IMG/VR virus record: IMGVR_UViG_2565956731_000004
Coordinates: 1-38,221 of that record
From: a virus
Lineage: Duplodnaviria > Heunggongvirae > Uroviricota > Caudoviricetes
Strand: one strand, 5' to 3'
Length of the DNA: 38,221 bases
Position numbers and translations under genes: made by a program. The notes beneath the pieces are model-generated. The model saw nothing but the letters and a program-made list of their open reading frames with translations. It searched no databases and was not told where the DNA came from. This document shows, piece after piece, positions 1 through 38,221 of this stretch (position 1 is its first letter; each line of letters begins with the position of its first letter).

Positions 1-1005
1 TTAATCCCCCGTGGACACTGCGTGGACACTCACGCCACCTTTCAGCGGATTAAGGGCCACCGCATCCTGCAGGTAATCCGGTGCAAAATGTGCATATGCC
101 ATTGTTTGCTGAATGGTTGCGTGGCCAAGAATCTTCTGAAGCGCAATAATGTTTCCTCCGTTCATCACAAAATGGCTGGCGAACGTATGCCGCAGCACAT
201 GTGCAGCCTGGCCTTTTGGTAAATCGGGCTTAACTCTTTTCAGCGCCAAGCAGAATTCCCGGTACTTCACCTCAAACAAGCCGCCTGTTTCTCTGGTTTT
301 GATCGCCTCACAAACTGCCTGCGAAATTGGCACTGTTCTCTTTCGGCCATTTTTGGTTTCAAGAAACGTCACTCGGTTATGAACTATCTGTTCACCACGG
401 AGCTTACAGGCTTCACTCCAGCGCGCTCCTGTGCTTAAACACAAAAGAGCAACACGCCAGTAATCGCCCTCCAATGTATCGAGCAATAACGCAACTTCCT
501 TTTGTGACAGGAACGCCATTTCTCGTGGAGATACATAAAGAATAGAAATTCCCCTTACCGGATGTTCTGCATCCCAAAGACCTATTTTTTTCAGCACGGT
601 AAACATTCCGGATAACCGATTCATGTACCTGTTAGCAGATGACGGTTTCAATCCATCAGCTATCTTTTGAGAACGCCACGCGATAATTTTCAGCTTATCA
701 AGATCCACAGCCTGCATATCAGCGCCAAGCTCATTGATTATGTTGCGCAGTTGTTTTCGGTCTTCTTCCGCCTTACGCCTGTGTTGACCGTGATACATCC
801 ACCACAACTCAAGCAAATCATTTAGCGTTCGGCGATCACGGTAGCCCTGTATATATTCCCGCTTTTCAGCGTTCGCCATGATGTAGCGTTCAGTGGCCAC
901 CGCTACCGATTTTTTGTCAAATACCTTACGCACGCGCTTTCCCTTGCGTCCGTTCGGCCTGATGTCCAGCAAATAACGACCATCTTCGAGCTTCTTAATT
1001 GACAT
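1..1005 (-). CDS. int: tyrosine integrase (P2 Int-like)
   Basis: 334-codon ORF; ATG is the sixth codon of the track ORF, with GGAGGG 7 nt upstream; C-terminal HVLRHTFASHF...Y tyrosine recombinase signature; at the prophage end, divergent from the repressor/cox switch. Confidence 0.9.
   Translation of the reverse strand: MSIKKLEDGRYLLDIRPNGRKGKRVRKVFDKKSVAVATERYIMANAEKREYIQGYRDRRTLNDLLELWWMYHGQHRRKAEEDRKQLRNIINELGADMQAVDLDKLKIIAWRSQKIADGLKPSSANRYMNRLSGMFTVLKKIGLWDAEHPVRGISILYVSPREMAFLSQKEVALLLDTLEGDYWRVALLCLSTGARWSEACKLRGEQIVHNRVTFLETKNGRKRTVPISQAVCEAIKTRETGGLFEVKYREFCLALKRVKPDLPKGQAAHVLRHTFASHFVMNGGNIIALQKILGHATIQQTMAYAHFAPDYLQDAVALNPLKGGVSVHAVSTGD
11..30. other. candidate attL core, inside the 3' end of int
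   Basis: gtggacactgcgtggacact, itself a tandem GTGGACACT repeat; 17 of 20 identical to 37041..37060 (gtggtcactgcgtggacata). Confidence 0.4.
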
Positions 1006-1101
1006 TGCGAAGCCCTCCAATGAACCGCTCTACAATTTCTCCAGCCTCTTTCCAGCAATAATCAGACCAGACAAAGAGCAGGTCTAACCAGTTTTCTGGC
1101 C

Positions 1102-10860: not shown

Positions 10861-11907
10861 TCAGGATGTGGGCTGGGTGTCTAACAGTGCGTAAGGGTTA
10901 AAGCGGATCACCTCTTCGCCAAGCCAGTCATTGATGTGCTTCATGGCCTCCATAACGGGCATCAGCTCGTTAATTGCGTAAACCCGCGCTGCCTTCTCCA
11001 CATCACCAAACGCACTTTTTTCGCCCGGCATCGCCCCCATCAGTTGCGGCGGAACGCGGTGCGCAGCCAGCACATCATCACGGGATGCCGCCTTAACATT
11101 CATGAACTCATCCTTTGCGGTGATCTGCTGGAACGGCAAAATTTGCACCCCCTCTTTGCCCCCGTTGGGCGCATGAATGAGCACGTTTTTAAACGCACCA
11201 CCACCACGTGCACCCTGTAGCGTTTCTTTCAGGGAGTCCATGCTTTCGCGGTTTACCTGCGCTGCACCGATGTAGATGATGCACCCGGCGTGGGATCCGT
11301 TGTCGTAATACAGTTTTCTGAACATGTCCGCCGAATGAGACAGGCTGGCCGAGAGTAATGCGCCAAGATATTCCGGCATGCCGTAGATTTCCTGGTTAAT
11401 GTCAGGATTCATCAGGTGGCACACTTTGCCAGGGCGAAACTGAAACGCATCCTTGCCATCCTGCACATACCACCATGATTCAAGATCGCTTCCGCGTCGC
11501 ATGTATTTCGCCAGGGCGTGCCGTAATTTAAGCGGTTCGCCGAGCATATTGCTTCGAAGCTCAAGGAATGCGTTACCGAACACAAACCAGTCCAGCGCCA
11601 GCGCCGAAAAATCCTGCCGGGAAAGCAGCGGGTGCGGAATATAGCAACCGAGCAATACATTGCGCTTAAAGTAAAGCGCAGACTGATGCCAGGACGTTTG
11701 CCGGGCGGCTCTTGCCAGACCGTACCAGTCCACCGGGGTTTCATACCACCGCCCGTTATCAGCACAGTACATATTGTCCAGCAGGTCATGCCCGGTCAGG
11801 CGATAAGGACCATCAAATGTGAATGCACTGAGCGACGATTCTTTCCTGAGCGCATCAGCGAGATCAATGCGTGAACTCATGCGCACTTTTTTATTTTTTC
11901 TGCTCAT
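10861..11907 (-). CDS. Q: portal protein (P2 gpQ-like)
   Basis: 348 aa; size, position and leftward orientation paired with the large terminase as in P2. Confidence 0.85.
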   Translation of the reverse strand: MSRKNKKVRMSSRIDLADALRKESSLSAFTFDGPYRLTGHDLLDNMYCADNGRWYETPVDWYGLARAARQTSWHQSALYFKRNVLLGCYIPHPLLSRQDFSALALDWFVFGNAFLELRSNMLGEPLKLRHALAKYMRRGSDLESWWYVQDGKDAFQFRPGKVCHLMNPDINQEIYGMPEYLGALLSASLSHSADMFRKLYYDNGSHAGCIIYIGAAQVNRESMDSLKETLQGARGGGAFKNVLIHAPNGGKEGVQILPFQQITAKDEFMNVKAASRDDVLAAHRVPPQLMGAMPGEKSAFGDVEKAARVYAINELMPVMEAMKHINDWLGEEVIRFNPYALLDTQPTS

Positions 11908-13658: not shown

Positions 13659-13812
13659 TGCTCCCCCTGAGTAATTACAGGAAGATTACCCGCGCGCGAA
13701 ACCGTTCTCCTTAACCCCCTGTTCTGGCCGTTTTCTTACAACAAAAGCCCTTTGTATCAGCCTGTTACGCTTTGCCATCATGACTGAAGAACCAGTCAGA
13801 GGGGCAAAAACC

Positions 13813-14649
13813 ATGGCTAATGAAAAAAAGACATCCCGCAAAAAGTTTCGCGTGGCTGTCTCCGGATCAACTGTTGATGGCCGCGAAATCAGTCCGGTAC
13901 ATCTGCGTGAAGCCGCCGAGAACTTCAACCCGGATGTTTACGCTGCCCGCGTGAACGTTGAGCACTATCTCTCGCCATGCCCGTCAAGCGAATTTTCCGC
14001 AATGGGCGATGTCACCGCGCTGAGTACGGAAGATATTACGGAAGGCCCGCTGGCCGGACGTACTGCGCTGTATGCAGAAATCGAACCGACCGAGCGCATG
14101 AAGCAGCTTGTCGCTGACGGCAAGAAAATCTATTCCAGTATCGAACTGCACCCGCAGTTCTCCGTTAACGGGCGCGCCTATCTGGTCGGGCTGGCGATGA
14201 CCGACACCCCGGCAAGCCTGGGCACTGAGCGCCTGAAATTCACGGCACAGCAACGTCAGGCGGTGATGACGTTCAACAGTGTCCAGGGTGAAGCACCGCT
14301 TATCTCCGAAGCCATCGAGTCTGAAATCATCGAAATGGCAGAACAACGCCAGGAAGAAGGCACCCAGTGGTTTAACCGCGTAATGGGGATTATTGGCCGT
14401 GGCCGCAAAGCGGATGACGCCAGTTTCTCCCGCATTCAGGAAGCGGTGGAAGGCGTCGCAACGTCACAGGCCGACATTATCGACCGTTTTAATGCACTGG
14501 AAACCCGCCATCAGCAGGACAGCCAGAAAATCACTTCACTGACCACAGAGCTGGCAGCACTGAAGGAAAAACTGCGCACGCAGGACGGCGATCCGCAGAA
14601 CCGGTTCACCGCAACGGGCGCAGCCTCCGACCAGCTGGCTGACTTCTGA
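13813..14649 (+). CDS. O: capsid scaffolding protein (P2 gpO-like)
   Basis: Start taken at the internal ATG (MANEKKTSRKKFRVAVSG...) with AGAGGGG RBS; divergent from P across a 120-bp gap. Confidence 0.85.
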   Translation: MANEKKTSRKKFRVAVSGSTVDGREISPVHLREAAENFNPDVYAARVNVEHYLSPCPSSEFSAMGDVTALSTEDITEGPLAGRTALYAEIEPTERMKQLVADGKKIYSSIELHPQFSVNGRAYLVGLAMTDTPASLGTERLKFTAQQRQAVMTFNSVQGEAPLISEAIESEIIEMAEQRQEEGTQWFNRVMGIIGRGRKADDASFSRIQEAVEGVATSQADIIDRFNALETRHQQDSQKITSLTTELAALKEKLRTQDGDPQNRFTATGAASDQLADF

Positions 14650-33768: not shown

Positions 33769-33879
33769 GCGATTTGGAGATATTAAATCAAACATGAGTA
33801 AATATTACCAATAACAGAGTGTACTTATTGGATGTATAGTTCTTTCATTTTTTAGGAGAAATTAAGAAAATTAACTCAA

Positions 33880-33911
33880 TGTGCACCTTATAAAGGCGCA
33901 CACTTTGTTTT
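33880..33911. terminator. bidirectional hairpin between D and the ParA-like gene
   Basis: TGTGCACC-ttataaa-GGCGCACA followed by a T-rich run; perfect with one G-U pair on the minus-strand transcript. Confidence 0.55.
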
Positions 33912-33916
33912 GCATG

Positions 33917-34975
33917 TTAAAAATTATTTATTATGTGTTCAGCTAAATGATCATACTCACCAGCCATCTCATTCATTAGTTCTACCTGATTAACTGCCCA
34001 TTGCCCCCGCCCACGAAGAGCATTCGTTGGCCTAACTCGAGACAAATAGCGAATAGGTATATTTTGAATAATACTATCAGGAGCCATAACGTTGAGGTCC
34101 TCAATCTTTCCAACTGGTTCATAATCAGTAAAATCAGGAACCGCGTTGTAAGATGAAATCTGTGAAAGCTGAGGAAGCATTTTTTCCTCTATCGCTTTTC
34201 TTATTGAACGGTGATGAACTGCATCTGCACCAACCTCTTGTTTAACATCATTTTGCTTTCTCGTATCAAAACCATTGAATATCCAACCGCCAAATTTAGG
34301 CATCCCTTTCTGAGATATAATATTATCTCGTGGGTTACCTGATAGATATCTTTCCTTGCCCTGCTCCCAATCACGTATAAATGATGGCAACATCTCACCA
34401 ATCAGCCCTACACAATATGAAGAGAATAAATCAGGTGTGCATGGAACTAAAAAATAGTCCGAACAGTACAATGACGATCTAACAAGCGTATTGAATGAGG
34501 GAGGTAAATCTATTAGGACATAATCATAAATAACATCATTTTTCTCTGATGCTTTTTTTGTTATCAAATCTGGCAAAATAAAACGATATAACCCTGCGCC
34601 ACTTATAACATCAGTGCCGACATTTAAAATATCTGAAAATGTATTAAGCCAAAAGTCTCCAGGAACAATATGCAAAACGCCTGCATCTGTCTTAGTCTTA
34701 GGTTCTGTTGTATAAACTTCACCTATAGTATTTTGTTGTATGTAAGGCAATGCAAATGCTTTAACCGTTTTTCCAAAAGGGAAATCATCTGAAGGTTCCA
34801 ATAACTCTGAAAATTCCTCATCACCAATACATGCAATTGAGAGATTACACTGGGGATCAAAGTCTATTAATAAAACACTTTTTCCTTTATCTGCTAGCGA
34901 TACTGCAAGATTCCAAATTATAGTTGTTTTACCAACACCACCTTTGTTATTAAAAATCGATATAGTTTTTGTCAT
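33917..34975 (-). CDS. ParA/MinD-family P-loop ATPase with about 100-aa C-terminal extension, AT-rich gene
   Basis: 352 aa; deviant Walker A KGGVGKTT near the N-terminus; LLIDFDPQCN and DYVLIDLPP motifs; flanked by AT-rich intergenic DNA; composition clearly AT-richer than the tail genes. Confidence 0.8.
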   Translation of the reverse strand: MTKTISIFNNKGGVGKTTIIWNLAVSLADKGKSVLLIDFDPQCNLSIACIGDEEFSELLEPSDDFPFGKTVKAFALPYIQQNTIGEVYTTEPKTKTDAGVLHIVPGDFWLNTFSDILNVGTDVISGAGLYRFILPDLITKKASEKNDVIYDYVLIDLPPSFNTLVRSSLYCSDYFLVPCTPDLFSSYCVGLIGEMLPSFIRDWEQGKERYLSGNPRDNIISQKGMPKFGGWIFNGFDTRKQNDVKQEVGADAVHHRSIRKAIEEKMLPQLSQISSYNAVPDFTDYEPVGKIEDLNVMAPDSIIQNIPIRYLSRVRPTNALRGRGQWAVNQVELMNEMAGEYDHLAEHIINNF

Positions 34976-35234
34976 TTACAACCCTTATTTCAGTGAAATT
35001 TTCGTTGAGAATCAGCATTTGTTTTTTTGCATAAACCACAATTCAACTTTGAGATTAACACAAGCCTTATTGTTATACATTAAAATCCTACTCAAATGAC
35101 ATCATTGAGATACTCATGTAATTTATTCGCCACGACAAAGCCTACTTCAGTGACTTGCTCAAAGCGGAGTTGCTGTTGGAATCTGAGTTGGGGCAACTTA
35201 GAATGGTGGCAGCACCACGTTAAGGGAGGTCGCT

Positions 35235-35495
35235 ATGTTTCGTTGTCCGCTTTGTGGCGCATCTGCCCGTATCCGCACCAGTCGTCCTGAAAATGATTCA
35301 AACACCGTGCGGCAAAAGTATTACCAGTGTAACAATCTGGAATGCGGCGTATGCTTCTCAACACTGGAAGCTTTCCATAAATTCACATCAAAACACGCCT
35401 CCGGCGCTCTCTCTTCAGAAGGTATCCCGTGGCATAAGCTGCCAGCTTCACACAGGGGAAACAATCAGATGAGTTTGCCTTTACCTCAGAATTAA
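35235..35495 (+). CDS. ogr: late gene activator, Ogr/Delta zinc-finger family
   Basis: 86 aa; MFRCPLCG...YYQCNNLECGVCF Cys4 arrangement as in P2 Ogr; located near the prophage right end. Confidence 0.75.
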   Translation: MFRCPLCGASARIRTSRPENDSNTVRQKYYQCNNLECGVCFSTLEAFHKFTSKHASGALSSEGIPWHKLPASHRGNNQMSLPLPQN

Positions 35496-35686
35496 TGGGC
35501 AGAATTGCCGGAGCAACAAAAAAGCGATAGATTACGCGCGGGTGCCTTTCGGCTGATGGTCGGAGGGAATACCCGAAGGCCAGATGTGGAAAGGCCCCGG
35601 AAAACATTTCTGTTTAACCGAGGCCCTAACATATCTACCTTAAGCAAGTGATAGGTTAGCGCCTCTCCAACAAAGGAGCAAGCGCT

Positions 35687-35827
35687 ATGTCGCAAAAATC
35701 GCTTACGGCCATCACGTTCTGCGTGACGGTAATCCTCATCATCTGGATGCTGCACGGTTCGCTGTGTGAAATACGGATGAGCTTCTGGGGAGCGGAGTTT
35801 GCGGCGTTCTTACAGTGTAAGCAGTAA
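35687..35827 (+). CDS. Hok/Gef-family type I toxin (46 aa)
   Basis: MSQKSLTAITFCVTVILIIWMLHGSLCEIRMSFWGAEFAAFLQCKQ; single TM helix plus SLCE and AAFL motifs as in recalled HokA; AAGGAG RBS; below the ORF-track size cut-off. Confidence 0.6.
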   Translation: MSQKSLTAITFCVTVILIIWMLHGSLCEIRMSFWGAEFAAFLQCKQ

Positions 35828-35836
35828 GGAAACCGC

Positions 35837-35858
35837 GACGGGGGAGTAATCCCCCGTC
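35837..35858 (+). other. hairpin immediately 3' of the hok-like ORF
   Basis: GACGGGGG-agtaat-CCCCCGTC. Confidence 0.5.
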
Positions 35859-35916
35859 AATCGGTTGCCAGGGTAAGGTCGATAAGGCACCCTATCTTAC
35901 AGACATGAACAACAAG

Positions 35917-35948
35917 CCCGCAGCGTAAAAACTGCGGGTTTTCTTTTT
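35917..35948 (+). terminator. intrinsic terminator after the hok-like locus
   Basis: CCCGCAG-cgtaaaaa-CTGCGGG followed by TTTTCTTTTT. Confidence 0.7.
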
Positions 35949-35980
35949 GGTATCCCCATCCATAAGCAATAGGCATAACA

Positions 35981-36018
35981 GATCGATGCAATAAATCCGA
36001 TCGATAAAAACGATCGAT
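35981..36018. promoter_or_regulatory. cluster of three GATCGAT motifs upstream of the com-like / methyltransferase operon
   Basis: GATC at 35981, 35999 and 36012, each within GATCGAT, about 45 to 80 bp upstream of the com-like start. Confidence 0.45.
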
Positions 36019-36062
36019 TTGTTATCATATCGGCAGCAGTAACCACACAAGAGGTGCCGCAA

Positions 36063-36260
36063 ATGACGCAAAATGTACGATGCAAAAATTGCAACAAACT
36101 ACTTGCCCGCGCCTCATTTCACTACATTGAAATAAAATGTCCGCGCTGCAAAACACTTAACCAGATAACGAGAGCCATTGAGCCCCCCACACACATGAGG
36201 AGTTATGACCGTGGGGATCGCAATCCAGCACCAACCAGCACATACACCGGAACACACTAA
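36063..36260 (+). CDS. Com-like zinc-ribbon protein (Mu Com family)
   Basis: About 65 aa from the ATG at 36063 (AAGAGG RBS); VRCKNCNKLLARASFHYIEIKCPRCKTLN matches recalled Mu Com (IRCKNCNKLLFKA...HIEIRCPRCK); 3' end overlaps the methyltransferase start by 56 nt. Confidence 0.6.
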   Translation: MTQNVRCKNCNKLLARASFHYIEIKCPRCKTLNQITRAIEPPTHMRSYDRGDRNPAPTSTYTGTH

Positions 36261-36996
36261 GGTTTATCAGACTGACAATGCCACGCTCTGTCGTGGGAAT
36301 GCGCTGGAAATATTGCCGCTGATTGAGCCAGAAAGTATTGATGCCTTAATCACTGACCCGCCTTACAGTTCGGGCGCGACACACAAGGCCGGACGCACCA
36401 ACCAGGGCAGCCACGCAAAATATCTGAACGGCGAGAACCTTCATCGCTTTGATGGGTTTGCGGGTGAAAACATGGATGCCCGTTCGTGGGCTTACTGGAC
36501 ACAATTATGGATGGCACAGGCACACCGCGCAGTCAGGCCGGGCGGTTATGCCCTGGTATTTACTGACTGGCGACAACTGCCAGCTTTAACCGATGCGTTT
36601 CAGGCCAGCGGTTTTACATGGCGTGGAATCATTGCGTGGAACAAAGGAAGGGGGTCACGAACACCCCATACGGGGTATTTCCGGCATCAGTGCGAATACA
36701 TCGTCTGGGGCAGTAAAGGCCATTTAGGTAAATCGCCTTCGGGACCGTTCGACGGCTGCATGACGTTCCCGGTTATCCCATCAAAGAAAATGCACCCGAC
36801 CGGAAAACCAGAAGAACTTATGGCAGAACTGGTCAGGACTGCGAATAGTGGTGGAACAGTCCTTGATCCTTTTATGGGATCGGGAACAACGGGTGTTGCA
36901 GCACTGAAAGCAGGGCGCAAATTTATTGGTATAGAAACCAGTGATCATTATTTTGATATAGCAACACAACGGCTCAAAACGGCGATCGAACCATAA
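36205..36996 (+). CDS. DNA methyltransferase (N6-adenine/N4-cytosine class, DPPY motif)
   Basis: 263 aa; catalytic DPPY (LITDPPYSS) near the N-terminus and AdoMet motif DPFMGSGTTG near the C-terminus; GAGG RBS. Confidence 0.85.
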   Translation: MTVGIAIQHQPAHTPEHTKVYQTDNATLCRGNALEILPLIEPESIDALITDPPYSSGATHKAGRTNQGSHAKYLNGENLHRFDGFAGENMDARSWAYWTQLWMAQAHRAVRPGGYALVFTDWRQLPALTDAFQASGFTWRGIIAWNKGRGSRTPHTGYFRHQCEYIVWGSKGHLGKSPSGPFDGCMTFPVIPSKKMHPTGKPEELMAELVRTANSGGTVLDPFMGSGTTGVAALKAGRKFIGIETSDHYFDIATQRLKTAIEP

Positions 36997-37000
36997 GACA

Positions 37001-37022
37001 AAGCCCGCAATGTTGCGGGCTT
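37001..37022 (+). terminator. hairpin after the methyltransferase
   Basis: AAGCCCGCA-atgt-TGCGGGCTT, 5 nt after the stop; weak T-run. Confidence 0.5.
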
Positions 37023-37040
37023 ACTCTACCTCTCGAAAAT

Positions 37041-37060
37041 GTGGTCACTGCGTGGACATA
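37041..37060. other. candidate attR core
   Basis: gtggtcactgcgtggacata; 17 of 20 identical to 11..30 at the int end. Confidence 0.4.
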
Positions 37061-37225
37061 CGCTGATACAAATCCTTTTATATCAAGAAATTAAATCTTT
37101 GTTTTTTTCATCAACAAGGATTTTCACGTTTGTGTTACCTGTATGAGACGAGAGTTAACCAGACAAGTGTGCCATAATCTCGCGGCCAGGCATACTTGCG
37201 AAGATTTCAGGTATAAGGATACGTA

Positions 37226-38221
37226 ATGATACAACCTATTTCCGGCCCTCCTCCTGGGCAACCACCAGGTCAGGGAGATAACCTGCCGTCTGGCGCGGGC
37301 AATCAGCCTTTATCCAGTCAGCAACGTACTTCGCTGGAAAGCTTAATGACGAAAGTGACCTCACTGACGCAACAACAAAGAGCAGAACTGTGGGCGGGTA
37401 TCAGGCACGATATTGGTCTGTCGGGAGATTCACCGCTGCTTTCGCGTCACTTCCCTGCCGCTGAGCATAATCTGGCGCAACGTCTGTTGGCCGCGCAGAA
37501 AAGCCATTCTGCCCGCCAGCTTTTAGCGCAATTAGGGGAGTATTTACGTCTGGGGAATAATCGTCAGGCGGTCACGGATTATATCCGTCATAACTTTGGT
37601 CAGACGCCGCTGAATCAGCTCTCACCGGAGCAATTAAAAACCATTCTCACCCTGTTGCAGGAAGGGAAGATGGTTATTCCGCAACCACAGCAGCGCGAGG
37701 CGACCGACCGTCCTTTATTACCGGCGGAGCACAATGCGCTCAAACAGCTGGTGACCAAACTTGCGGCAGCAACGGGGGAACCCAGCAAACAGATCTGGCA
37801 ATCGATGCTGGAACTTTCCGGGGTGAAAGATGGCGAGTTAATTCCAGCGAAACTGTTTAACCATCTGGTGACCTGGCTACAGGCGCGTCAGACGCTAAGC
37901 CAGCAAAATACGCCGACACTGGAATCACTACAGATGGCGCTAAAACAACCTTTAGATGCCAGTGAACTGGCGGCGTTATCGGCATATATCCAGCAAAAAT
38001 ATGGCCTTTCTGCGCAATCATCGCTTTCTTCTGCCCAGGCCGAGGATATTCTTAACCAGCTTTATCAACGGCGGGTTAAAGGGATTGAGCCGCGTGATAT
38101 GCAACCGCTGCTTAATCCTTTTCCACCGATGATGGACACGTTGCAAAATATGGCAACGCGTCCCGCGCTGTGGATACTGTTAGTCGCGATTATCCTGATT
38201 CTGGTCTGGCTGGTTCGTTAA
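37226..38221 (+). CDS. flk: host tail-anchored membrane protein, recalled as the flagellar regulator Flk
   Basis: 331 aa; MIQPISGPPPGQPPGQGDN... N-terminus and single C-terminal TM anchor (LWILLVAIILILVWLVR) match my recollection of enterobacterial Flk; ordinary host-like composition. Confidence 0.65.
   Translation: MIQPISGPPPGQPPGQGDNLPSGAGNQPLSSQQRTSLESLMTKVTSLTQQQRAELWAGIRHDIGLSGDSPLLSRHFPAAEHNLAQRLLAAQKSHSARQLLAQLGEYLRLGNNRQAVTDYIRHNFGQTPLNQLSPEQLKTILTLLQEGKMVIPQPQQREATDRPLLPAEHNALKQLVTKLAAATGEPSKQIWQSMLELSGVKDGELIPAKLFNHLVTWLQARQTLSQQNTPTLESLQMALKQPLDASELAALSAYIQQKYGLSAQSSLSSAQAEDILNQLYQRRVKGIEPRDMQPLLNPFPPMMDTLQNMATRPALWILLVAIILILVWLVR

Follow-up and report, generated by a model that had tools for sequence, protein, structure and literature searches.

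The window analysed here is the whole 38,221-nt IMG/VR record IMGVR_UViG_2565956731_000004. Near its right end, from position 35981 to 36996, a cluster of three GATCGAT repeats is followed by two overlapping genes, one encoding a small zinc-ribbon protein of the Com family and the other a DNA methyltransferase. The repeats, the Com protein and an RNA hairpin predicted at the start of the methyltransferase gene all have counterparts in the region that controls mom in phage Mu. As judged from sequence comparison, the locus is likely to be a Mu-type com cassette fused to an orphan beta-class methyltransferase and carried as a moron next to attR in a P2-like Escherichia coli prophage.

The com gene and the methyltransferase

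The com gene (36063..36260, plus strand) encodes a 65-aa protein with an N-terminal CxxC-N16-CxxC zinc ribbon and a variable tail. Its Shine-Dalgarno sequence is AGAGG at 36050-54. The GTG listed as its start, at 36054, is disfavoured because it overlaps this same AGAGG; the likely start is the ATG at 36063, which lies 8 nt past the Shine-Dalgarno sequence and is also the RefSeq start. The first-pass annotation had described the product as a Com-like zinc ribbon, and a profile search against the Com family bears this out: the protein matches Pfam PF10122 (Zn_ribbon_Com) with 45.3 bits against a cut-off of 22.9 (E=5.9e-12), and phrog_13819, 'gpCom', with E=9e-16. Over the zinc ribbon it is 57% identical to Mu Com, and C7, C10, C27 and C30 align with the Mu cysteines. 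RefSeq names the two proteins 'Com family DNA-binding transcriptional regulator' and 'DNA-methyltransferase'. The first of these names, attached to WP_001353016.1 (36063-36260), looks misleading, because experimental work has characterised Com as an activator of translation that binds RNA (PMC6483171, PMC3378877).

The second gene (36211..36996, plus strand) encodes 261 aa if read from the GUG at 36211, or 263 aa from the AUG at 36205. The open reading frame (ORF) 36205-36996 matches PF01555 (N6_N4_Mtase, E=1.4e-33), so that the regulated enzyme is a methyltransferase rather than Mom, as had been proposed. Its assignment to the DPPY type is likewise sustained by the order of motifs, with DPPY at residues 51-54 followed by FMGSG at 223-227, which is that of the beta class and is invariant in 29 homologues. 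DpnA and CcrM are its relatives in the PDB (E about 1e-20), and the Type II MTase model of PADLOC matches with E=1e-63. N4-cytosine enzymes also match (E=3e-13); as DPPY favours N6-methyladenine, the methylated base is probably N6-adenine. Membership in the Hia5-type (Hia5/M.HaeV) family was considered and ruled out, since the enzyme here is beta-class and that family is Dam-like and alpha-class, being related to Dam (PMC3299994). The gene is flanked by com on one side and by a terminator hairpin, attR and the host gene flk on the other. With no restriction nuclease gene adjacent to it, the enzyme is an orphan, and a restriction-modification pair is ruled out.

Between the two candidate starts of the methyltransferase, the GUG at 36211 is favoured by sequence context, because it lies at the ideal distance of 8 nt from the Shine-Dalgarno sequence GAGGAG, because all other cargos found behind com also start with GUG, and because the main protein cluster, P0001, begins MGIAIQ. 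The overlap of 56 nt between the two genes reported earlier is correct when counted from the AUG at 36205, and becomes 50 nt from the likelier GUG.

Over the 1.25 kb surrounding the locus, the sequence is 98.8% identical to Escherichia phage Chuche, in which the same pair is annotated as 'gpCom control of modification' and 'DNA methyltransferase'. After Chuche, the closest relative of the enzyme in a cultured phage is Bpm of Bordetella BPP-1, with 53% identity. Homologues with 62-80% identity that lack Com have also been found (L091 2151-3295; L093 2307-3786; L095 2206-3591). One of them stands directly after ogr in another P2-like prophage, and two stand between holin and endolysin genes, one in a Mu-like and one in an HP1-like prophage; the latter two are presumably expressed under the control of a late lysis operon. 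L091, which lacks Com, is similar only from about 36280-36295 onward, shortly after com ends, and by this comparison the methyltransferase gene owes its first ~23 codons to the control cassette and not to the conserved enzyme core. A profile scan of genome contigs with the methyltransferase alignment returned mostly distant, Com-less methyltransferases among the matches listed. The only Com-like stretch among them is in a contig from a metagenome-assembled genome of Proteobacteria (L011 515-1468). There the zinc ribbon and a homologous methyltransferase (phmmer E=1.4e-9) share one stop-to-stop frame, which may mean that the two are fused or that the ribbon is encoded by a separate ORF upstream in frame. 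Exact-match look-ups of two proteins of the set, P0004 and P0006, gave no match.

Regulatory elements shared with Mu

The claim that three GATCGAT motifs are clustered just upstream of the operon holds: they lie at 35981, 35999 and 36012, and are the only three in the window. The resulting pattern, GATC-N14-GATC-N9-GATC, occurs once in the window against an expectation of 0.02. In the Mu sequence used for comparison (L003), the GATC sites lie at 1160, 1178 and 1191, and their spacing of 18 + 13 bp is identical. An ungapped count by eye gives about 31 identities to Mu over the 42 positions of the triad segment. The same triad with the same spacing is found in a Yersinia kristensenii prophage (L087), whose methyltransferase is 72% identical, and in another contig (L097); a Salmonella locus (L089) and Mu-like cassettes have only the GATC2-GATC3 pair, 13 bp apart. 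Across 8 diverged cassettes with a mean column identity of 68%, CGATCG at GATC2 and GATCGAT at GATC3 are invariant. The 13-bp spacing is kept in nearly all cassettes that bear GATC sites, and the 18-bp spacing in those with GATC1, the exceptions being L175 and L100. These comparisons indicate that the triad region and the Dam/OxyR region preceding mom in Mu are homologous; in Mu, Dam and OxyR control the transcription that starts at Pmom (PMC3378877).

The triad also coincides with a predicted binding site for an OxyR tetramer, with three Dam sites spaced by 18 + 13 bp (35978..36014, strand not assigned). When the whole window was scanned with the consensus ATAGNTNNNANCTAT-N7-ATAGNTNNNANCTAT, only two sites reached 15/20, at 35969 and 35978, and both overlap the triad. 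In the gtr system of P22, pairs of GATC 13 bp apart lie inside single OxyR half-sites, and methylation blocks OxyR binding (PMC2909390). Given the homology to the Mu region and the consensus match, OxyR/Dam control of the com operon is a well-founded prediction.

Some natural variants of the P2-like cassette depart from this pattern. In L101 (about 11500-11620, minus strand) and L214 (about 13720-13830), all three GATC sites are lost and a -10 element is kept, the segment ACAGATCGAT...GATCGATTTG having collapsed to ACAAATCAATTTG. In L175 (about 10900-10980), GATC2 has changed to GAAC. These three loci are ready-made natural variants for the Dam layer.

A sigma70-like promoter is predicted directly at the triad (36001..36028, plus strand), comprising a -35 element TCGATA (36001-06), a 16-nt spacer, the TG of an extended -10 (36020-21) and a -10 element TATCAT (36023-28). 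It scores 9/12 plus the TG, and is the only promoter-like site in 35600-37250. GATC2 is within its -35 element and GATC3 within its spacer. An element resembling the -10 is found at an equal distance from GATC3 in the Yersinia prophage, in L097, in the Salmonella locus and in two cassettes with a C5-cytosine methyltransferase (L100 and L117). The distance from GATC3 to the start of com is 51 nt here versus 78 nt in Mu, that is, 27 bp shorter.

The second regulatory layer concerns the mRNA. The sequence recognised by Com, 5'-CC(N)2-3GAG-3', is presented in a small hairpin, and beside it lies a 'translation inhibition structure' that holds the mom GUG in its stem (PMC6483171). At the end of com, the predicted Com binding motif GCCAUUGAGC (CC-N3-GAG; 36174..36183, plus strand) lies directly 5' of a predicted translation-inhibition hairpin (36185..36216, plus strand), in which CCCCAC (36185-90) pairs with GUGGGG (36211-16). 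This hairpin encloses the Shine-Dalgarno sequence GAGGAG (36197-202) and the AUG at 36205, and its 3' arm contains the GUG at 36211. The CCCCAC/GUGGGG stem is present in both the minimum free energy and the centroid folds, and is predicted in every homologue examined (n=6). The expected occlusion of the methyltransferase ribosome-binding site by an mRNA hairpin is thereby supported at the level of structure prediction. In an alignment of 12 cassettes from Escherichia, Yersinia, Salmonella and Mu, the elements GCC, GAGC, CCCAC and GUGGG are invariant, and all 72 of the 72 cells of the stem pair, with one compensatory change from C-G to U-A, in Mu. Rfam contains no family matching the Com target or the hairpin; its only match is a sub-threshold one to sok, upstream.

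One cassette with several cargos, and its possible workings

An IMG/VR scan with the pattern GAGCNCCCCAC-N10-30-GTGGGG returned 127 matches. A zinc-ribbon filter flagged 33 of these, one of them spurious (L189), and the unflagged ones are chance matches. In the 32 Com-linked loci retained, the same com/hairpin cassette precedes three unrelated cargos, namely a beta-class methyltransferase (261 or 266 aa), a C5-cytosine methyltransferase (about 350 aa) and a Mom homologue (245 aa), and all three types start with GUG-GGG. Loci with this cassette include L084 (1501-2707) and L116 (13239-14130), as well as L100, L117, L143, L150 and others. L084 (C5) and L116 (Mom) share 96-100% identity for 240 nt up to GUG+10, beyond which the similarity is random, and this probably marks a fixed recombination junction for cargo swapping about 10 nt after the GUG. 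Between L089 and L117, the hairpin is the best conserved segment (29/30). The fact that the hairpin is best conserved across differing cargos, and that three unrelated proteins begin with GUG-GGG, points to the RNA element, and not the proteins, as the object of selection. Since the same com and hairpin precede unrelated cargos, and similarity to the Com-less enzyme starts past the com stop, the segment of roughly 320 bp at about 35951-36275 can be regarded as a portable control cassette.

The two-layer layout of Mu mom that had been proposed for this locus is thus borne out by homology to both the regulatory DNA and the regulatory RNA of Mu, and not by resemblance only. By the preferred reading, RNA polymerase would be blocked at 36001-36028 when OxyR occupies GATC that is un- or hemi-methylated, and full Dam methylation would exclude OxyR. 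Translation of the bicistronic mRNA would yield Com, while the start of the methyltransferase (GUG 36211, Shine-Dalgarno sequence 36197-202) would stay locked in the CCCCAC/GUGGGG hairpin. Com, if it acts as it does in Mu, would bind the adjoining GCC-N3-GAGC and open the hairpin for translation of the methyltransferase. The enzyme could then methylate the phage DNA and protect it from restriction in the next host, and a gate at each of two levels would curb methylation of the host that is toxic or ill-timed. Translation of mom in Mu requires Com, and mom is toxic (PMC3378877). M.EcoGII, a non-specific prophage methyltransferase, slows growth when expressed constitutively, and in its lysogen it is silent (PMC5778455). 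The most likely function, judging from Mom and from the methyltransferases found in its place in FluMu, Pnme1 and Hia5, is methylation of phage DNA for restriction evasion (PMC3299994).

Several observations weigh against this reading. The match to OxyR, at 15/20, falls short of the full consensus. The Dam layer appears to be dispensable, because natural variants exist without all three GATC sites (L101, L214) or without GATC2 (L175). The site for the activator C (Mor/C family) and the weak C-dependent promoter, which in Mu occupy the interval from the GATC sites to com, are absent, only the 9-mer TAACCACAC being kept of that Mu interval. No Ogr dyad (TGT-N12-ACA, near -55) is present upstream of the operon; the only nearby match, at 36138, is inside com. 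The covariation of the hairpin consists of a single compensatory pair, both arms of the stem are also coding, and the fold energy is unexceptional with respect to shuffled sequences (z = -0.83). The support for the hairpin rests on its conservation across non-homologous cargos and not on covariation or energy. The small hairpin that presents the Com motif has only about 2 bp here, as read from the sequence, versus a 4-bp stem in Mu. Finally, the same family of methyltransferases occurs without Com in other phages.

The first-pass annotation had also suggested that the function might be expressed late. This part finds no support, because the locus lacks both an Ogr box and the C-dependent promoter; instead, a sigma70-like promoter lies under the GATC/OxyR site, and an Ogr-dependent late promoter is ruled out. 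The same facts bear on another reading, in which a rewired Mu cassette has placed the Dam/OxyR site on a constitutive-type promoter and acts in lysogens as a heritable switch in the style of agn43 and gtr, ON when the GATC sites are methylated and OFF when OxyR is bound. The methyltransferase would then act on the host chromosome, for phase-variable regulation or for protection of the lysogen, and not only on lytic phage DNA. The overlap of the promoter, at 9/12 plus TG, with GATC2 and GATC3 speaks for such a switch, as do the shortened interval between GATC3 and com, the insulation of the operon by terminators, its moron position beside attR and the precedents of agn43 and gtr, which have the same kind of site (PMC2909390). 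However, the E. coli prophage methyltransferases that have been studied are usually silent in lysogens (PMC5778455, PMC4659465), a gate made of Com and a hairpin better fits a function that must stay off, and phase variation of Mu mom itself is not established (PMC2909390). A lysogenic switch is considered unlikely.

It is likewise unlikely that the triad is a vestige of a Mu-like ancestor, or that Dam acts without OxyR, through RNA polymerase or SeqA at the -35 and spacer. The loss of GATC sites in the variants above and the imperfect OxyR match would agree with this idea, and methylation could act directly on a GATC2 placed inside the -35 hexamer. A vestige is, however, difficult to reconcile with CGATCG and GATCGAT being invariant in cassettes whose flanks have diverged so far, with the retention of the 13-bp and 18-bp spacings apart from L175 and L100, and with the triad being the best OxyR match in 38 kb. 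At the RNA level, plain translational coupling might suffice, ribosomes on com melting the hairpin with no need for a contact between Com and RNA in trans. The com ORF does read through the whole hairpin to 50 nt past the GUG, and overlapping genes are commonly coupled. Mu Com acts in trans, though, and the exact conservation of the published Com motif at its Mu position, together with that of the zinc ribbon across cassettes, makes mere coupling very improbable; in Mu, moreover, the mom mRNA is not translated without Com (PMC3378877). Least credible of all, and in effect ruled out, is the notion that the GATCGAT repeats are the target of the methyltransferase itself (ATCGAT or GATC-like) and autoregulate its promoter. 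They are palindromic and located within the promoter, which agrees with this, but they precede com whatever the cargo, Mom, C5-cytosine or beta-class methyltransferase, and since they are conserved irrespective of it they belong to the cassette and not to the enzyme.

Prophage setting, significance and known systems

The window corresponds to about one P2-like E. coli prophage, running from the integrase gene (1-1020, minus strand) to an attR-like sequence (about 37041-37062) that lies between the methyltransferase terminator hairpin and the host gene flk (37226 onward, RefSeq annotation, downstream of the methyltransferase). Positions 11-30, just inside the 3' end of the integrase gene (GTGGACACTGCGTGGACACT), resemble 37041-37062 (GTGGTCACTGCGTGGACATA). 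This likeness probably reflects an att core or attR, with attL outside the window. The com-methyltransferase locus thus occupies the extreme right end of the prophage, 3' of ogr (35235-35495, PF04606) and of an ORF for a hok/gef-type toxin (35687-35827, PF01848). A sok-like RNA is matched 5' of hok (Rfam RF01794, 47.9 bits, below the gathering score of 59, E=3.6e-9), and the segment 35540-35827, which separates ogr from the com operon, resembles a type I toxin-antitoxin module; a similar hok/sok-like module is present in the Yersinia and L097 relatives. A terminator scan predicted a strong intrinsic terminator at 35914..35950 (plus strand), with a 10-bp stem and a T-run, which would close the hok/sok unit and insulate the com operon from read-through. 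The scan also found a GC-rich hairpin after the methyltransferase stop (37001..37022, strand not assigned). It was scored on the minus strand and its plus-strand T-tail is weak; it is likely to be the terminator of the operon.

Other features of the prophage have been noted. Between the tail gene D and ogr, an ORF at 33917-34975 (minus strand; window 33800-35100) encodes a 352-aa ATPase of the ParA/AAA_31 family in an island of low GC content (30-40% versus about 53% in the flanks). Phage Chuche lacks it, D being directly followed by ogr. Its sole similarity in PADLOC is weak and limited to the P-loop (candidate PDC-M28B), and it may be a defence or partition moron. Over the whole window, GATC is rarer than expected, with 93 sites versus 140 +/- 10 in dinucleotide-preserving shuffles, none of the 100 shuffles being as low.

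The locus is carried by 163 of 5,426 complete E. coli genomes (coverage >= 80%). The arrangement of com with a methyltransferase is already known, as it has been published for FluMu, B3 and KS5 and annotated in AP3 and Smp131, and the locus itself carries this annotation in GenBank and RefSeq. A literature search found no description of the Mu Dam/OxyR triad retained in a P2-like prophage, of the triad repositioned on a sigma70-like promoter, or of a fixed cargo-swap junction at the hairpin. It also returned nothing relevant on the RefSeq accessions or the methylomes of carrier strains.

The comparison presents the elaborate control of mom in Mu as a mobile cassette of about 320 bp that P2-like phages have in common with Mu-like ones and that has been joined to three or more unrelated enzymes of DNA modification. 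The likely start codon of a widespread prophage methyltransferase is corrected to the GUG at 36211, and the gating would explain why such enzymes may be silent in methylome surveys. The P2-like version, without the C activator, offers a simpler natural system for combined Dam/OxyR and Com gating, and bears on the question of epigenetic phase variation in a methyltransferase carried by prophages of pathogenic E. coli. Should the doubtful switch described above exist, it would represent a Dam/OxyR-controlled phase-variable methyltransferase ('phasevarion') in E. coli, including strains of Shiga toxin-producing E. coli O103 and O145; more broadly, Com and the hairpin would form a plug-in translational gate, with phages swapping the modification enzymes behind a fixed junction about 10 nt past the GUG. 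The practical value is modest.

Among known systems, the closest in layout is com-mom of Mu (NC_000929 35768-36602), with which the locus shares the Com zinc ribbon, three GATC sites at 18 + 13 bp, a CC-N3-GAG motif beside a 6-bp hairpin holding the GUG start, and a com overlap of 50 nt. It differs in its cargo, a beta-class S-adenosylmethionine-dependent methyltransferase instead of Mom, which forms acetamido-adenine, and in its host element, which is P2-like whereas Mu is transposable. It has neither the C-activator site nor the C-dependent promoter of Mu, GATC3 is 27 bp nearer to the com start, a sigma70-like promoter overlaps the GATC sites, and the hairpin loop has 20 nt versus 11 nt in Mu. 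The cassettes of enterobacterial Mu-like phages with com and a C5 or Mom cargo, such as a Mu-like insert in the Stx2c phage LC727881, have a Com that is 64% identical, an identical CCCCAC/GUGGGG hairpin, GATC-N9-GATC upstream and a cargo starting with GUG GGG; they differ in the cargo enzyme and in the absence of GATC1. Those of the L084/L116 type, unlike the locus here, show no -10-like element at the corresponding position.

In the P2-like phages Burkholderia KS5 (gp21/gp20, PMC3091744) and AP3 (gp28/gp29) and Stenotrophomonas Smp131, Com likewise overlaps a PF01555 methyltransferase, and AP3 has CC-N2-3-GAG motifs near the 3' end of com. These loci are distant, however, with about 38-40% identity for Com and about 41-46% for the methyltransferase; they lie between tail genes and not at attR, and no GATC triad is visible upstream of com in AP3. 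In Pseudomonas phage B3, a Com homologue also directly precedes and overlaps a methyltransferase (ORF47/48). FluMu, Pnme1 and the Hia5 locus resemble the present one in having a DNA adenine methyltransferase in the position of mom (PMC3299994). Hia5, Hin1523 and Nma1821 belong to the Dam-like alpha class and are nearly nonspecific in their activity (PMC3299994), whereas the enzyme here is beta-class, as is M.EcoGII, a non-specific adenine methyltransferase of 349 aa. Finally, agn43 of E. coli and gtr of P22 and Salmonella have a similar GATC cluster inside an OxyR site at the promoter, where the present locus has a predicted one. They control surface antigens that have been shown to phase-vary, and the likeness of the present locus to them is one of sequence only.

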